Of a stretch of DNA of 64,000 bases, positions 4,577 to 57,175 are shown one piece after another. The DNA is from Candidatus Woesebacteria bacterium GW2011_GWB1_39_12 (lineage in GTDB: Bacteria; Patescibacteriota; Microgenomatia; UBA8517). The notes below the pieces were generated by a model, which searched no databases, had not been told where the DNA came from, and was given only the letters and a program-made list of their open reading frames with translations. Position 1 is the first letter of the stretch. Every line of letters begins with the position of its first letter. The translations under genes were made by a program, and so were the position numbers. The DNA lies in the NCBI GenBank assembly GCA_000993405.1, contig LBWB01000009.1, positions 77,848 to 141,847 on the forward strand. Direction: 5' to 3'.

Positions 4577-5494
4577 CTATATCCTCTCGGCTCGTCTTGA
4601 AGAAGCCTTGGAATCAAAGAAGAACTCGCGGGCAGGCCAATACTTTTCCCACCCCGGGGCAAGAGTGGACCAAGAATGTCTTACTCCTATCTCAAGCTCA
4701 TAATTTGCTCTGTTTAATATCTCTCCAATTGTACCCGTTTCTCCTTCTCTAAAAACTCTTCCCAGAACTTGCTCATTGAAATCAACAAAACGTCCACATC
4801 TTTCTCCATTTCCTCTAATACCCAGCCTTGGACCTACAGCTTCCAAAATTTGTCTACTTACACCTTCTGCTGACAAATTCTTCCTATCAATTACAACCCA
4901 ATCCTGCTCAAGCTGAATATAATGTTTTAGAATACCAGCTCTTGTATTATAGGCTGATCTATCTACTTCAAAAGAGTCGTCCTTTAAACCCCTATCTATA
5001 TCTCGTCGTGCCCGCGAGACATCTGCTTCTTTAGTACTAACATCCAAAAAGAATTTAAAGGTAGGAGTCCCTTCAAACAACGAAAAAAATTGCTTATCTA
5101 TTTCTTTTAAAAATCTAAACTCTTGACTAGCAGTAGTTTTGAATCTTTTCACCTCATCAAGTATCGACAGTGCATTACTGGAGGGCCACCTTTCTATAAC
5201 AAAAGACCATCCCATTACAATTCCACTTTCAATAAACTGGGAAATTTCACCACGGTTGACCGCGAAAAGTTCTTGCAACGATCTTCCCTTAGGAATAAGC
5301 GTATATCCGTCAGGCCTCAGGATTGATTCTAGAATTCGACCTGTCGGAGTTTCATAACAGGGAAGTTTTAAAGAACACACATCCATCCCTCTACTTACTA
5401 CTTCCTTAATCAGTAACTCTGCGGTTGTAGATTTGCCCGAGCCGCCCAGACCTTCCAAAACAATTGCAAGCTGCTGATTAGTCTTAGCTGACAT
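4577..5494 (-). CDS. thymidylate kinase-like P-loop kinase with ~90-aa C-terminal extension
   Basis: 305 aa; N-terminal AIVLEGLGGSGKSTTAELL resembles the dTMP kinase P-loop (IEGxxGxGKST); the C-terminal third is unrecognised. Confidence 0.6.
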   Translation of the reverse strand: MSAKTNQQLAIVLEGLGGSGKSTTAELLIKEVVSRGMDVCSLKLPCYETPTGRILESILRPDGYTLIPKGRSLQELFAVNRGEISQFIESGIVMGWSFVIERWPSSNALSILDEVKRFKTTASQEFRFLKEIDKQFFSLFEGTPTFKFFLDVSTKEADVSRARRDIDRGLKDDSFEVDRSAYNTRAGILKHYIQLEQDWVVIDRKNLSAEGVSRQILEAVGPRLGIRGNGERCGRFVDFNEQVLGRVFREGETGTIGEILNRANYELEIGVRHSWSTLAPGWEKYWPAREFFFDSKASSRRAERI

Positions 5495-17700: not shown

Positions 17701-19317
17701 TCACTCTTTTATATTAGAAAATTCATTCGACACTTTAAACCAGTAGTCGAATATTTCCCTTGCAATCGGTCCTGCAACACGCGAGCCTTCTCCGCCATTT
17801 TCTATCAAAATAGTGGCAATTATTTGAGGATCCTCAAGTGGCGCGAATGCCACAAACCAGGCGTGCGGATCACTATTTTCAGTTTCGGCTGTACCCGTTT
17901 TACAACCAACATCAATTCCAGTTTTTTCTTTAAAATCAAAAAAAGTAAAGCCGGTCCCACCCGTACTACACGCCTGTCTCATTCCCTCTTTAACCAAATC
18001 AATATTTTCTTTTTCAACTCCCAAGTTTTTGCACCCGCCTGCATCGCTATGCGAAGCATTGCGGGCAGGTTGGAAATCTTCTAATTCTGAAGAGGAAACA
18101 AGATGGGGTTGGCAATACTCTCCGCCATTTGCAATGGTAGCAATCGCTGCATTAACCCCCAGAGGAGTCAAAGCAATATCTCCCTGTCCGATTGACATAT
18201 GATAGGTATTTCCCAAAAACCAGCGCTCGCCCTTGGTCCTCATTTTCCAGGCCGGACCTGGAACCAAACCTGCAACCTCACCGGGGATATCGATACCTGT
18301 TTTTTCGTCAAGCGAAAATTTGTGTGCCCAATCACCGAGTTTCTCAACACCGATAATTTCCCCTAAAGTATAAAAAAAGGTGTCGGTTGACCTTGCAATT
18401 GCCCGCTCTAGACCAATCTTACCTTCCCTCCCTCCATACTGATTAAAAAACCAGTTGGTATAGGAAAAAGTCCCGTACAAAGTTTTAATGGTTATGACAC
18501 CCGTATCTTCAAAGGTAAAATTCTTGTCGATTTTCTCTTCTTCTAGAGCTGCAATTGCAACAATCGGCTTAAAAGTAGATCCCGGGTGATATACTCCGCC
18601 CATCACTCTATTAAACAAAGGTAAATTGACGTCTTGAAACAAATCCGAAATTTGATTTTGATTATCCTTAGTTATGAATAGGTTAGGATCATAAGAAGGC
18701 GAAGAAAAAAGCCCAAAAATTTCCCCATTTGCGTCACTTACAACCACCGCTCCCTTTTTGCCTTCCAACGATTGAGCGATCTTTTTTTGTAATCCATAAT
18801 CAACAGTTGTCTTCAGGTCTCTTCCTTGCCTCGGTTTTACTTTTCCTAAAATTCTTACCTTTCGGCCCATCGCGTCAACTTCGACCAACTCCTCGCCTTC
18901 ATATCCCGAAAGAGATTTTCCCAATTCTTCTTCGGAAACTTCACCCAAATAGCCAGATAAGTGAGCAAAATCGGCCCCCATCGGATAGTTTCTAACCCAC
19001 TCGGAAATCAATTCTGAGGAGTCCCCTTCTTTTACTTCTTCTTTTCTAACTCCTTCGGTTTCGTCGAAAATCAGCCTCATTTTTACCTCCTTACTGTCGA
19101 CTAAGATTTCTCCACCCCGCGCCAGAATTTTTCCCCGGGGAGCGGAAATCGGAATTCTCCTTATCCTGTTCTCTTCGGCCAGAGCCTTAAAATACCTTCC
19201 CCGGATTATCTGTAAGTCGATAAGTCTTCCAAAAAGAACCAGAAACCCCAAAATTAAAACTCCACGTAAAAACCAAACTAACCAACTTTGAATTTTTGTT
19301 GAGGACAGTGTCTGCAT
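17701..19317 (-). CDS. mrdA: penicillin-binding protein 2 (peptidoglycan D,D-transpeptidase)
   Basis: 538 aa; N-terminal TM; transpeptidase motifs STFKP, SxN-like, KTGT. Confidence 0.85.
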   Translation of the reverse strand: MQTLSSTKIQSWLVWFLRGVLILGFLVLFGRLIDLQIIRGRYFKALAEENRIRRIPISAPRGKILARGGEILVDSKEVKMRLIFDETEGVRKEEVKEGDSSELISEWVRNYPMGADFAHLSGYLGEVSEEELGKSLSGYEGEELVEVDAMGRKVRILGKVKPRQGRDLKTTVDYGLQKKIAQSLEGKKGAVVVSDANGEIFGLFSSPSYDPNLFITKDNQNQISDLFQDVNLPLFNRVMGGVYHPGSTFKPIVAIAALEEEKIDKNFTFEDTGVITIKTLYGTFSYTNWFFNQYGGREGKIGLERAIARSTDTFFYTLGEIIGVEKLGDWAHKFSLDEKTGIDIPGEVAGLVPGPAWKMRTKGERWFLGNTYHMSIGQGDIALTPLGVNAAIATIANGGEYCQPHLVSSSELEDFQPARNASHSDAGGCKNLGVEKENIDLVKEGMRQACSTGGTGFTFFDFKEKTGIDVGCKTGTAETENSDPHAWFVAFAPLEDPQIIATILIENGGEGSRVAGPIAREIFDYWFKVSNEFSNIKE

Positions 19318-20745: not shown

Positions 20746-23001
20746 ATGGTCGAAAAAATTAAAAATAGTATCACAGTAGTTTATTATCTGTTGTTTTTTA
20801 GTGTACCTCTTATTTTTCATCCTCAAACTTCAGAGCTTTTTGAATTTAACAAAATGGTACTAACCTACGCGTTAACAACATTTATTGTTTCGTTATGGCT
20901 TATCCGCATGATTCTCGAGAAAAAGATTATCTTTCGTCGCACAATATTGGATATACCTTTAATAATTTTCCTGATTTCTCAATTCCTAAGTACCTTAATC
21001 TCCATAGATTCAAGAACTTCCCTTTTAGGCTACTATTCCCGCTTCCATGGAGGTTTGGCATCAAGTCTTTCTTATTCGCTTCTCTACTGGGCATTTGTTT
21101 CAAATATGCATCGTTTAGAGGTAATAAAATCAATAAAAATTCTTATCACAAGCGCATTTTTAATAAGTATCTGGGCGATATTTGAGCACTTCGGCCGCTC
21201 ATTCAGCTGTCTTTTAGTTCCGGAGTTTCGTAGCTTCGATGCTTCATGCTGGGTACAGGACGTTCAAAATAGAGTCTATGCAACCCTTGGGCAACCCAAT
21301 TGGTTGGCGGCTTGGATAGTAGCACTCACACCATTAACGTGGGGGTTCGCTTTAATATCAAATATCAATCCTTCGGCAAAGTTCAGGATTGATGCTGAGC
21401 GAAGTCGAAGCATCAAAAATCAAAAATCAAAATTACAAAGCAAAAAGACAAATATTTTAAAGTTTGTTTTTTGGGTTACCCTTTCAATTTTATTCTTTTC
21501 AACTTTATTGTTCACCAAGTCTAGATCTGGATTACTTGGATTTGGAGTAGCAAACTTGACTTTCTGGGCACTGTCTTTCTTATTCTCCCTTAAACATAAT
21601 ATTGAAAAAAAACACTTTCTCAAAACATTTGTAATTTGTAATTTGGCGTTTGTAATTCTCGCCCTGGCGAGCGGCACTCCTTGGACTCCGAATTTAAAAA
21701 ATGAGGGCTTGCCCGCCGAAGCCCTGAGCGACGCCGAAGGGGTGAAGGCGGGTCCTGCGCTCGAGGTAGGAGGTTCGTCTTCCGTAGAAATTAGAAAAAT
21801 TGTCTGGAAAGGGGCAATCGATATTTGGAAACACTATCCAATCTTGGGTACGGGCGTAGAAACTTTTGCCTTTTCCTACTATAACTTCCGGCCGGTAGAA
21901 CATAATTTGGTTTCGGAGTGGGACTTTCTTTACAATAAAGCACACAATGAATACCTTAACTATGCTGCAACTGCAGGCACGGTTGGACTCCTCGCATATC
22001 TCTTACTAATATGCTTCTCTGTCTACCAAATTTCTAATATCAAATTTCTGGGACAAAGTCCAAAGGATTTATCCGCCATTTCTAAACAAATCCCAAATTC
22101 CAAATCCCAATTAGGCCAATCAGAGCAATCAGAAATTAGTCTTTTGAGCATAGCATTATTATCTGGCTTTATATCAATCCTTATGACCAACTTCTTTGGC
22201 TTTTCCGTCGTCCCCGTCGCACTACAATTTTTCCTCTTTCCTGCATTTGCAATTACGCTTGCAGGACAAAGTGCAGAGGACAAAGTGCAAAGATTTGAAA
22301 AAATCGAATCATCTAACTCACAAAAAACCCTAGTCTTCTTTGTTTTTTGTACTATGCTCTTTGCGCTATTTTCCATAGGAAAATACTGGTATGGAGACTT
22401 TCTTTATGCAAAAGGAAAGATGTTTAACGATTCGCAGGAATATATTAAAGCCCAGGCTACACTTGCGAAAGCCGCAATGCTTTCTCCAAAAGAAAGCGTT
22501 TATCATGGAGAACTGGCTGACGTTGCATCAACTCTAGCAATCATCGCTTACGAGGAAGGCGATGAAGATCTTGCAAAAAAATTCGTGGAAATTGCAATTT
22601 ATGAGTCTGATATGGCAGCAAAACTTTCACCAGCAAATATCACTTTAAAAAGGGATAGAGCCAACATGTTTATCAAATTGTCGATAATCGATCCGAGTTT
22701 TCTGATCAGTGCTCGCAATACATTAATAGAAACGGTAAAGTTTGCCCCAACCGAAGCGAAACTTTCTTATAATCTGGGCGTGACCTATCTTCGTACCGGC
22801 GATTATGAAAAGGCAATTGAAATTATCCAAAAGGCGGTTGAGATGAAACCGAATTATAAGGAGGCTCACTATGCCCTTGCCCTTTTGTATATTGATAAAG
22901 GCGAAAAGGAAAAAGCCAAAGAAGAACTTCTTTATATTTTAGAAAATATCTCTTCCAATGATCCCGAAGTTAAGAGGGAGTTAGACGAATTAGGAATTTG
23001 A
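20746..23001 (+). CDS. polytopic membrane protein with O-antigen ligase (Wzy_C)-like core and C-terminal TPR repeats
   Basis: 751 aa; many TM segments; …NKAHNEYLNYAATAGTVGLLAYL… resembles the O-antigen ligase motif; C-terminal ~200 aa TPR-like (…YNLGVTYLRTGDYEKAIEIIQKAVEMKPNYKEAHYALALLY…). Confidence 0.7.
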   Translation: MVEKIKNSITVVYYLLFFSVPLIFHPQTSELFEFNKMVLTYALTTFIVSLWLIRMILEKKIIFRRTILDIPLIIFLISQFLSTLISIDSRTSLLGYYSRFHGGLASSLSYSLLYWAFVSNMHRLEVIKSIKILITSAFLISIWAIFEHFGRSFSCLLVPEFRSFDASCWVQDVQNRVYATLGQPNWLAAWIVALTPLTWGFALISNINPSAKFRIDAERSRSIKNQKSKLQSKKTNILKFVFWVTLSILFFSTLLFTKSRSGLLGFGVANLTFWALSFLFSLKHNIEKKHFLKTFVICNLAFVILALASGTPWTPNLKNEGLPAEALSDAEGVKAGPALEVGGSSSVEIRKIVWKGAIDIWKHYPILGTGVETFAFSYYNFRPVEHNLVSEWDFLYNKAHNEYLNYAATAGTVGLLAYLLLICFSVYQISNIKFLGQSPKDLSAISKQIPNSKSQLGQSEQSEISLLSIALLSGFISILMTNFFGFSVVPVALQFFLFPAFAITLAGQSAEDKVQRFEKIESSNSQKTLVFFVFCTMLFALFSIGKYWYGDFLYAKGKMFNDSQEYIKAQATLAKAAMLSPKESVYHGELADVASTLAIIAYEEGDEDLAKKFVEIAIYESDMAAKLSPANITLKRDRANMFIKLSIIDPSFLISARNTLIETVKFAPTEAKLSYNLGVTYLRTGDYEKAIEIIQKAVEMKPNYKEAHYALALLYIDKGEKEKAKEELLYILENISSNDPEVKRELDELGI

Positions 23002-23605: not shown

Positions 23606-23669
23606 TTCCATCTCTTCGAGCCTGAGCCTCAGAGCCGAAGGCCTGAGCGCAGTCGAAGGATGAATTATT

Positions 23670-26102: not shown

Positions 26103-26174
26103 GCCGTCTTAGCTCAGTGGTAGAGCAGCTGTTTTGTAAACAGCAGGTCTAGGGTTCGAATCCCTAAGACGGCT
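26103..26174 (+). tRNA. tRNA-Thr (anticodon UGU)
   Basis: Hand-folded cloverleaf: acceptor gccgtct/agacggc, D-arm gctc-agtggta-gagc, anticodon arm gctgt-tttgtaa-acagc, T-arm taggg-ttcgaat-cccta; CCA not encoded. Confidence 0.85.
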
Positions 26175-26199
26175 CAAGTGCAAACACACATTTTATTTA

Positions 26200-26284
26200 G
26201 CTGGAGTGCCGGAGTGGACAATCGGAGCAGTCTGTAAAACTGCCGCCCGGACGGGCTACCCAGGTTCGAATCCTGGCTCCAGCA
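26200..26284 (+). tRNA. tRNA-Tyr (anticodon GUA), class II with long variable arm
   Basis: Acceptor gctggag/ctccagc, anticodon arm gcagt-ctgtaaa-actgc, long variable arm cgcccggacgggctac, T-arm ccagg-ttcgaat-cctgg. Confidence 0.85.
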
Positions 26285-26316
26285 CAAGTAAAGAATCTTT
26301 CAAGAGAAGTACAAAC

Positions 26317-42996: not shown

Positions 42997-43062
42997 TCCA
43001 GTATATTCAATTTAACTTCCTTGGTTTTTAAAGTCAAATATTGATATAATCGAGTCGAATCA

Positions 43063-43267
43063 AGCCGAGATAGCTCAGGGGTAGACCTGCCCGCCGAAGT
43101 CGTGCCGTCGTAGCTCAGTTGGTAGAGCGTGCCCTTGGTAAGGGCAAGGTCACCGGTCCAATTCCGGTCGACGGCTCCAAATACGTAGGCGGGGCACTTT
43201 CTTGCCTGCCTTTGGCAGGCGACTTCGTCTAAAGAAAGGGGTCGTGGGTTCAATTCCCACTCTCGGC
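43063..43267 (+). ncRNA. split tRNA-like shell (degenerate tRNA-Thr-like 5' and 3' portions) enclosing tRNA-Thr(GGU)
   Basis: 5' piece gccgaga-ta-gctcaggggtagacc-tgccc is 43063-43091. The 3' piece runs gggca, a 42-nt hairpin insert, gggtc, gtggg-ttcaatt-cccac, tctcggc, t (43191-43267). The acceptor has 7/7 perfect complementarity and the anticodon-stem halves tgccc/gggca match those of the inner tRNA. Confidence 0.4.
43103..43178 (+). tRNA. tRNA-Thr (anticodon GGU), CCA encoded
   Basis: Perfect cloverleaf: gccgtcg/cgacggc, tagctcagttggtagagc, tgccc-ttggtaa-gggca, aggtc, accgg-tccaatt-ccggt, t, cca. Confidence 0.9.
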
Positions 43268-43320
43268 TCAAATCAGTTAGATTGTTGCATGGTTACATTA
43301 ATAAAAGTAAAATACCTACT

Positions 43321-55744: not shown

Positions 55745-55842
55745 CTACCTCGTTTAAGCTTGACTTAAATCGAGGAAGACAGACCGCCGAAAGGTTTGTC
55801 GAAGACAAAAAAACAAAAATCTTCGATTTTTTCTTCGGCGGA
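55745..55842 (+). promoter_or_regulatory. structured nusG-rplK intergenic leader (two hairpins; candidate L11-operon leader/attenuator)
   Basis: Hairpin cctcgtttaag…cttaaatcgagg; then nested hairpin ccgccgaa…tcgaaga-caaaaaaacaaaaa-tcttcga-tttttt…ttcggcgg. Confidence 0.4.
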
Positions 55843-57139: not shown

Positions 57140-57175
57140 CTCGCCAGCCGAAGTCTTAACGTAGGCGGGAGCCTA
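57140..57175 (+). repeat. GC-rich hairpin element (empty copy of the GCCCGCCGAAG…GGCGGG family)
   Basis: gctcgccagccgaagtcttaacgtaggcgggagcc; the same arms flank tRNA-Thr(GGU) at 43088-43195. Confidence 0.55.

Follow-up and report, generated by a model that had tools for sequence, protein, structure and literature searches.

The window analysed here, a 64,000-nt stretch of DNA from Candidatus Woesebacteria bacterium GW2011_GWB1_39_12, contains one tRNA gene lodged inside another. Positions 43086-43193 are a 108-bp insertion made up of a complete tRNA-Thr(GGU) between two complementary GC-rich arms (43086-43197 reads cctGCCCGCCGAAGtcgtg – tRNA – aaatACGTAGGCGGGgcac), and the pieces of an older tRNA-Thr gene lie on both sides. 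On balance, we favour the reading that the arms represent a strand-specific hairpin repeat of the REP/MITE-like kind, and that the copy at this locus carries a replacement tRNA within a dead tRNA-Thr gene. The features of the locus are as follows.

43042..43050, + strand: promoter-like extended -10 (TGATATAAT), from reading of the sequence, 13 nt 5' of the outer tRNA start
43064..43085, + strand: 5' fragment of the outer (old) tRNA-Thr(GGU); 22/22 identity with the intact tRNA-Thr(GGT) of a related genome (L003)
43086..43103, + strand: 5' arm of the hairpin element, CCTGCCCGCCGAAGTCGTG, parsed as CCTG-CCCGCC-GAA-GTC-GTG; fits the family consensus
43104..43179, + strand: inner intact tRNA-Thr(GGU), CCA encoded, in the apical loop of the element; ARAGORN, and Rfam tRNA at 68.1 bits
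43180..43193, + strand: 3' arm of the hairpin element, AATACGTAGGCGGG, parsed as AAT-AC-GTA-GGCGGG
43194..43204, + strand: middle fragment of the outer tRNA-Thr (GC of the D stem, A26, anticodon stem 5' strand, U32 U33 G34); identical to L003
43205..43231, + strand: 27-nt insert in place of outer anticodon bases G35 U36, by comparison with L003
43232..43268, + strand: 3' fragment of the outer tRNA-Thr, from A37 to discriminator U73; 95% identity with L003

The inner tRNA is a canonical cloverleaf that scores far above the Rfam gathering score of 29 and was called tRNA-Thr(GGT) by ARAGORN. The duplex formed by the 22 nt on each side of it has an energy of -15.7 kcal/mol, against -0.5 to -9.5 kcal/mol by the same measure for 69 other Woesebacteria tRNA-Thr(GGT) genes; the arms do embrace the tRNA, as a first-pass annotation of the window had proposed, and the observation is no product of chance. 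The annotation had overlooked the host, the second, disrupted tRNA-Thr gene around the element. Its 5' fragment (GCCGAGA-TA-GCTC-AGGGGTA-GA, 43064-43085) supplies the 5' strands of both the acceptor and the D stem, together with the D loop and the 2 nt that open the 3' strand of the D stem, and pairs with 43261-43267 in the MFE fold. The 3' side of the outer gene (43194-43268) reads GC-A-CTTTC-TTG…AAGAAAG-GGGTC-GTGGG-TTCAATT-CCCAC-TCTCGGC-T. The acceptor stem and T arm formed by the outer halves are both perfect, and the MFE fold of 43060-43275 (-94.6 kcal/mol, z = -4.45) encloses the inner cloverleaf between the paired acceptor strands and the T arm of the outer gene. This nested arrangement explains why tRNA finders make a single gene call at the locus. 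The TGATATAAT motif upstream also occurs 10-18 nt upstream of tRNA-Thr(GGT) at many Woesebacteria loci and may serve as the promoter; a consensus scan misses it because its -35 is weak.

The outer gene was compared with 80 rpmG-anchored loci from Woesebacteria/Microgenomates species. One related Woesebacteria genome, L003, whose L33 protein is 85% identical to that of the window, has an uninterrupted tRNA-Thr(GGT) (GCCGAGATAGCTCAGGGGTAGAGCACTTTCTTGGTAAGAAAGGGGTCATGGGTTCAATTCCCATTCTCGGCT). Relative to this gene, the outer gene carries two lesions, a clean 108-nt insertion in the D stem at GGTAGA^GCAC and the substitution of 27 nt for anticodon bases G35 U36; the 3' fragment also shows a compensated G-C/A-U pair in the T stem. 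The 27-nt insert (CCTGCCTTTGGCAGG-C-GACTTCGTC-TA) is composed of the palindrome CCTGCC-TTT-GGCAGG, which occurs once in the window (0.01 expected), and a small GAC-TTC-GTC hairpin. When both inserts were excised and GT was restored, ARAGORN called tRNA-Thr(GGT). Assignment of the outer gene to tRNA-Gly(GCC) or tRNA-Cys(GCA) was rejected, as ARAGORN accepts either only after an arbitrary excision and the L003 orthologue is a tRNA-Thr(GGT). To judge from its sequence, the outer gene is dead and lacks a usable anticodon as it stands, because a second small palindrome also replaces its anticodon. Comparison of the filled site with the empty L003 site (GGTAGAGCAC) revealed no target-site duplication at 43086-43193, and no integrase was found near the nested locus.

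The nested locus is not an artefact; at least 13 independent assemblies, drawn from several samples, agree at 100% identity over the 324-bp intergenic region that contains it. Two diverged strains (L093 and L094) are identical to the window through the outer 3' end at 43268, show their first mismatch 4 nt downstream at 43272, and cease to align at 43274-43275, and the neighbouring rpmG falls to ~80% identity. The end of the outer tRNA therefore appears to act as a recombination boundary in these strains. Neither presence/absence polymorphism of the element nor substitutions in the outer shell were found among strains. Because the strain differences are clustered by recombination, a shell without substitutions says little about selection, and we set aside the strain comparison as uninformative on constraint of the outer shell.

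The same point bears on the notion that the outer tRNA still works as a 'Russian-doll' precursor, which would yield a second tRNA either through removal of the inserts or with its pieces kept in place by the arm helix. A D stem that re-forms exactly upon removal of the 108-nt insert, the perfect outer acceptor stem and T arm, and the unchanged shell would all suit such a precursor, but the unchanged shell proves little for the reason just given, and anticodon bases G35 U36 are missing, so that Gly(GCC) or Cys(GCA) can be had only by an arbitrary cut. By inspection of the sequence, no bulge-helix-bulge can be drawn at either junction, both of which lie within helices or at a 1-nt bulge. The sole tRNA introns described in Patescibacteria are group I introns, located in anticodon loops (PMC13011429), and inserts of 108 nt (76 of which are the tRNA) and 27 nt are far too short for these; one of the two lies in the D stem, and no Rfam group I match was obtained in the window. 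We consider a working outer tRNA highly improbable.

The inner tRNA is of a different sequence type from that of close relatives. It matches the tRNA-Thr of the distant loci L064 and L078 at 70/73 and 69/73 positions, respectively, whereas L33 of these loci is only 66-70% identical to that of the window; it matches the tRNA-Thr of the close relative L003 at only 50/73. The clade has two tRNA-Thr(GGU) sequence types, and their distribution is mosaic. At several loci, fragments of earlier copies lie beside the working gene: 3' partial copies with wrecked anticodon loops adjoin the working tRNA-Thr in L016, L031, L034 and L042, short 3' remnants of another tRNA-Thr type occur in L011 and L055, and 20-nt duplicates of the tRNA-Thr 5' end occur in L002, L009 and L021. 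Turnover of the tRNA-Thr(GGU) gene is therefore recurrent, with the window as its cleanest snapshot.

The nested arrangement could also be taken as scar tissue from site-specific integration and excision at tRNA-Thr, in which case the hairpins would be att leftovers and not an independent repeat. Intact tRNA genes followed by a 3' partial copy that starts near the anticodon arm (L016, L031, L034 and L042 for Thr, L211 for Leu), the break in synteny of L093 and L094 no more than a few nt from the outer tRNA 3' end, and the mosaic of tRNA-Thr types are consistent with this. Against it, the outer gene of the window is a single complete copy that a clean insertion has divided, with no duplication of any tRNA segment; the hairpin is also present in ORFs and arrays at a distance from tRNAs; and no integrase lies nearby. 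An att scar is thus quite unlikely here.

Other small structures were seen around tRNA-Thr genes. The 3' partial copies lie 20-60 nt downstream of the intact tRNA-Thr in L031, L034, L042 and L016 and likewise after tRNA-Leu in L211, and carry a small stable hairpin in place of the anticodon loop and sometimes of the T loop; they could be att scars or products of repeat insertion. In L002, L009 and L021/L022, the first 20 nt of tRNA-Thr are duplicated 60-90 nt upstream, followed by ..AAGAAAATCTTGCCAC.., and the duplicated piece of L021 snaps back onto CTACCCAGG over 10 bp. All of these resemble additional tRNA fragments at this hotspot. L016 (~2690-2799) and L028 (~2760-2872) share a structured leader of ~110 nt between promoter and tRNA-Thr(GGT) (..CCCCCACAAAATT..GAGGAGGAATAGCGAAACGG..GCGAAGTGAAGCTTATTCCGAC), which has CGAAG...GCGTAG words and no Rfam match. 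The window itself has tRNA-Thr(UGU) and tRNA-Tyr(GUA) at 26103-26285, 17 kb from tRNA-Thr(GGU), and many relatives keep Thr-Tyr-Thr as a single cluster upstream of rpmG; no tRNA-Gly was present in this cluster among the loci examined.

The arms belong to a family of hairpins with the consensus CYTG-CCCGCC-GAA-GTC-[variable hairpin]-GAC-GTA-GGCGGG and a unit size of 30-45 bp. Each unit folds into a P1 helix of 6-7 bp and a variable P2 helix, separated by a symmetric GAA/GUA internal loop. Metagenomes were scanned with the pattern GCCGAAGTC-N0-30-ACGTAGGCGGG, and matches were found on at least 119 contigs. Forty-eight of the 120 exact-arm matches listed had, unforced by the pattern, a YYC extension of P1 and a G before ACGTAG (~2 expected); these 48 are preceded by a conserved CYTG and enclose a segment that varies in sequence but almost always forms a hairpin itself. 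The scan yielded at least 46 further copies, and a small structured repeat family, as proposed in the first-pass annotation, does exist. High-GC matches with long gaps look like coincidences in coding sequence, and viral contigs were discounted as a source, since their 7 + 4 exact-arm matches are nearly all chance-like and carry no tRNA cargo.

A covariance model, R1, was built from 32 copies. In the window, GCCGAAGTC and ACGTAGGCGGG co-occur at just two loci, the nested arms and 57147-57169. In the population loci, R1 recognises the nested unit over its full 108 nt (29.4 bits, E 0.003), whereas its score for the anticodon-loop palindrome is not significant (11.1 bits, E 3.8). Besides the nested copy, the window contains the following.

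57140..57169, + strand: 'empty' copy; R1 41.6 bits, E 2e-6, a score that is partly circular as this copy is 1 of the 32 training rows of R1 (the other 31 are from metagenomes); folds as P1, 3x3 loop, P2
21708..21752, + strand: divergent 45-nt copy, CTTGCCCGCCGAA...AGGCGGG, supported by its fold and by R1 at 24 bits, E 0.009
18034..18069, - strand: weak divergent 36-nt copy, CCTGCCCGC..GCAGGCGGG; R1 10.9 bits, E 4.2, not significant alone and included solely because its P1-loop-P2 fold matches and it lies in a linker

The empty copy lies 12 nt past the rplA stop codon, ahead of a convergent gene, and shares both arm words exactly with the nested copy. It gave no terminator call and no Rfam match, and with no rplJ downstream, an L10 (rplJ) leader or a terminator was rejected for this site. 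The 21708-21752 copy lies in frame in a hypervariable linker of an O-antigen-ligase/TPR protein, where it encodes ..LPAEALSDAEGVKAG.., and this linker differs in every homologue. The minus-strand copy, which the first-pass annotation had overlooked, falls within a variable loop of penicillin-binding protein 2 and keeps the reading frame; a 72%-identical PBP2 homologue lacks ~17 residues at this site, and other homologues have different GC-palindrome-like peptides at the same place. Of the five copies originally proposed, the nested, post-rplA and O-antigen-ligase instances are members of the family, the last of them divergent. The other two are not: the def-fmt spacer (23618-23658) has no R1 match and resembles the 21708 copy only in a CGAAGG-type word of its inner part, and the nusG-rplK stem CCGCCGAA...TTCGGCGG (55785-55840) matches neither R1 nor Rfam and is a separate long-range leader helix.

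Both helices of the element are maintained by covariation. Among 54 distinct sequences, both sides change in 9 of 13 pairs, a level reached in 0 of 500 shuffles, and sliding the register lowers the paired cells from 92% to 33-55%. Extra copies on the same contigs, unforced by the search pattern, show compensated P1 changes (UCCGCC/GGCGGA, CUCGCC/GGCGAG and CACGCC/GGCGUG), and P2 varies as well. A scan with 4227 Rfam families at gathering score returned only tRNA matches in the window and 40 loci. K-turn, sarcin-ricin/S-turn and BHB motifs were rejected for the GAA/GUA loop, whose sequence on inspection fits none of their consensuses. The terminal inverted repeats (CCCGCCGAAGTC against CCCGCCTACGTC as reverse complement) are identical at 9/12 positions. 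The flanks of 61 copies contain no consistent target-site duplication and, apart from the hairpin, no signature marks the termini; a 7-nt repeat in L156 and repeats flanking L186 look like local duplications. GTAG is conserved, but its place is in the internal loop, after P2 and ahead of the P1 3' strand; it precedes a GGCGGR-loop-YCCGCC hairpin only in tandem arrays. In ~40% of copies, GCGGG/GGCGGA stands ahead of CYTG, which in arrays is the end of the preceding unit. Both the nested and the post-rplA copy have A in place of the usual G before CGTAGG, suggesting that the nested arms belong to the genome's own subfamily. A full-text literature search returned nothing relevant on the arm sequences or the motif, and as far as we could find, the tRNA-in-hairpin-in-tRNA arrangement has not been described before.

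The window holds 3-4 copies in 64 kb, compared with 0 in 440 kb from 80 related species, and the abundance of the element is lineage-specific. Contig L213 has ~10 copies in 12 kb, most of them between same-strand accessory genes and three head-to-tail; L213 is probably not CPR, because it encodes a Por_Secre_tail protein. Its copies lie at 4654-4764 and eight other sites, with the tandem trio among GNAT, glyoxalase and methyltransferase genes. The arms are near-identical in contigs of 33% to ~60% GC from at least two phyla. Six copies lie within ORFs identified by a long spanning frame or by checked homologues, in both orientations and with lengths of 30, 30, 33, 36, 39 and 45 nt; three more, of 35, 38 and 40 nt, lie in 519-585-nt open frames of unverified coding status, so that 6 of the 9 lengths are divisible by three. 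A tRNA lies within 250 nt of 16 of the 46 low-GC matches listed, where we would expect a few percent by chance. At six loci, the GCGGG of the 3' arm doubles as nt 1-5 of tRNA-Gly or tRNA-Trp, and at four the element lies directly 3' of tRNA-Ser. In L211, where a partial tRNA-Leu lies beside an intact one, the element occupies the T loop of the partial copy and a CCTGCC..GGCAGG palindrome its anticodon loop. Deletion of the element in silico from 54 loci, which would expose hidden tRNAs, re-found only adjacent tRNAs, and the window copy remains the only one known to bear cargo.

A part of this evidence would suit a conserved functional RNA motif in place of selfish DNA, that is, a protein-binding, processing or stability element such as an RNase or RNA-chaperone site or a 3'-end stabiliser or terminator. 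The GAA/GUA loop may then be a recognition site, and around the inner tRNA the arms may form a leader-trailer processing stem. The very strong conservation of loop and arms across very different GC contents and phyla, the covariation in both helices, the sense orientation of 4 of 4 window copies relative to the host gene, the tRNA associations just described and the U-runs after some copies all point this way. However, copies in long ORFs occur in both orientations and the best-supported lengths are multiples of 3 nt, so that they appear tolerated and translated, not used. The tandem arrays and the large gaps in copy number between related genomes fit repeats, and two copies, one in a tRNA D stem and the other in a T loop, each destroy the host gene. 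The motif has no Rfam match, and no terminator was called at the nested or the 57140-57169 copy; U-runs follow only some of the metagenome copies. We regard a functional RNA as a serious competitor, though the less probable reading.

REP/BIME sequences are GTAG-tagged repetitive extragenic palindromes mobilised by RAYT tyrosine transposases, and REP families are normally species-specific. The element resembles them as a 30-45 bp imperfect GC-rich palindrome that contains GTAG, is present in many copies in some genomes as singletons and tandem groups, and lies mostly downstream of genes with occasional in-frame copies in linkers. It differs in that its GTAG is in a symmetric internal loop opposite GAAG, whereas canonical REPs carry it at the end of the palindrome, in that its arms are nearly identical across distant lineages, in its strong association with tRNA genes, and in that a gene lies within one copy. 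A screen of one contig revealed no transposase near any copy, whether RAYT/IS200-605 or of another kind, and the ten ORFs of this copy-rich contig gave no Y1_Tnp match. Rickettsia palindromic elements (RPE) likewise insert in frame into permissive parts of proteins, and into RNA genes, and are tolerated, but are 100-150 bp long, CGTC-tagged and restricted to Rickettsia. MITEs such as Correia/NEMIS and RUP are also short non-autonomous units with inverted-repeat ends, an RNA hairpin and a variable internal segment; unlike them, the element has no cognate DDE transposase and no target-site duplication at GGTAGA^GCAC, the sole junction that can be checked against an empty site. Published descriptions of REPs include a GTAG tag, a length of 20-40 bp, positions downstream of genes, in-frame intragenic copies, arrays and use as targets for other insertions (PMC3733652). 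The palindromes with GTAG, arrays, post-gene sites, in-frame copies and use as an insertion target match REP/BIME, RPE and MITE behaviour, and the REP-like reading is therefore favoured.

The locus also recalls the disrupted tRNA genes of archaea and red algae (BHB introns, split tRNAs) and the group I introns of Patescibacteria, in which the D arm or anticodon loop is interrupted and tRNA finders miss the gene. Here, by contrast, there is neither a BHB motif nor a group I core, the anticodon cannot be restored, and, compared with the archaeal and red-algal cases, the host is bacterial and the insert itself contains a tRNA. Duplicated tRNA 3' fragments at integrase att sites resemble the partial genes beside intact tRNAs in sister lineages and share the feature of a recombination hotspot, but the outer gene of the window is a single gene split by a clean insertion, without a duplicated fragment.

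Under the REP/MITE-like reading, the repeat would multiply in some genomes as a selfish palindrome of the REP/MITE/RPE type and persist where harm is small, that is, after genes, in tRNA flanks and in variable protein linkers. One copy would have split the resident tRNA-Thr(GGU) gene at the D stem, and the tRNA-Thr(GGU) of a different sequence type in its apical loop would now do the job. A single transcript from the old promoter would be expected, from which RNase P and 3' trimming would free the inner tRNA while the outer shell and arms are discarded. At the DNA level, the repeat would move, probably as a single-stranded hairpin handled by a trans-acting HUH/RAYT-like or similar enzyme. We can only infer this mobility, because no transposase and no target duplication was found; of the earlier proposal of a mobile or structured repeat family, the structured, multi-copy part holds. 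Events may have run in either order, with the tRNA inserting into the hairpin as its target or coming in as cargo. The assignment of the nested arms to the genome's own subfamily slightly favours insertion of the tRNA into a resident hairpin over import of a whole cassette, and a cargo mechanism lacks the support of a second cargo-bearing example.

The conservation of the arms across the GC range and across phyla is unusual for REPs and hints at a conserved partner or function. Given this, the lack of a transposase, a target-site duplication or a polymorphic empty site, the odd position of GTAG and the single cargo, an RNA-level role keeps about a quarter of the probability. A more novel possibility, which we hold to be rather doubtful, is that the element is a tRNA-gene-directed mobile cassette that knocks out a resident tRNA and brings its own replacement, or else an undescribed cross-phylum RNA signal that marks tRNA ends. 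A cassette of this kind would be a self-compensating, hard-to-lose mode of tRNA gene turnover. The locus illustrates in concrete form how a reduced CPR genome can replace an essential tRNA gene and keep the old gene as a fossil around its successor. The motif itself, which has no entry in Rfam, is widespread in uncultured bacteria, often near their tRNA genes, and represents either a new REP-like repeat class that reaches Patescibacteria or an unrecognised RNA signal.

Several smaller palindromes were seen in the window and at other loci. The nusG-rplK stem encloses ~45 nt, including a smaller hairpin, in the nusG-rplK spacer, and is probably an L11-operon leader or attenuator. The GC-rich word of the def-fmt spacer, GCCGAAGGCCTGAGCGCAGTCGAAGG, resembles the inner part of the 21708 copy (21722-21745), and CGAAGG-like words also occur within P2 of L209, L143 and L178; this word may represent another small repeat, nested within the hairpin family. 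Palindromes of the form CCTGCC(N)GGCAGG, which may constitute a second mini-palindrome family, occur in L032 (1570-1584), L042 (1604-1621), L068 (2234-2253), L191 (1325-1343) and L197 (2611-2626), and that of L068 sits between tRNA-Thr(UGU) and tRNA-Tyr.
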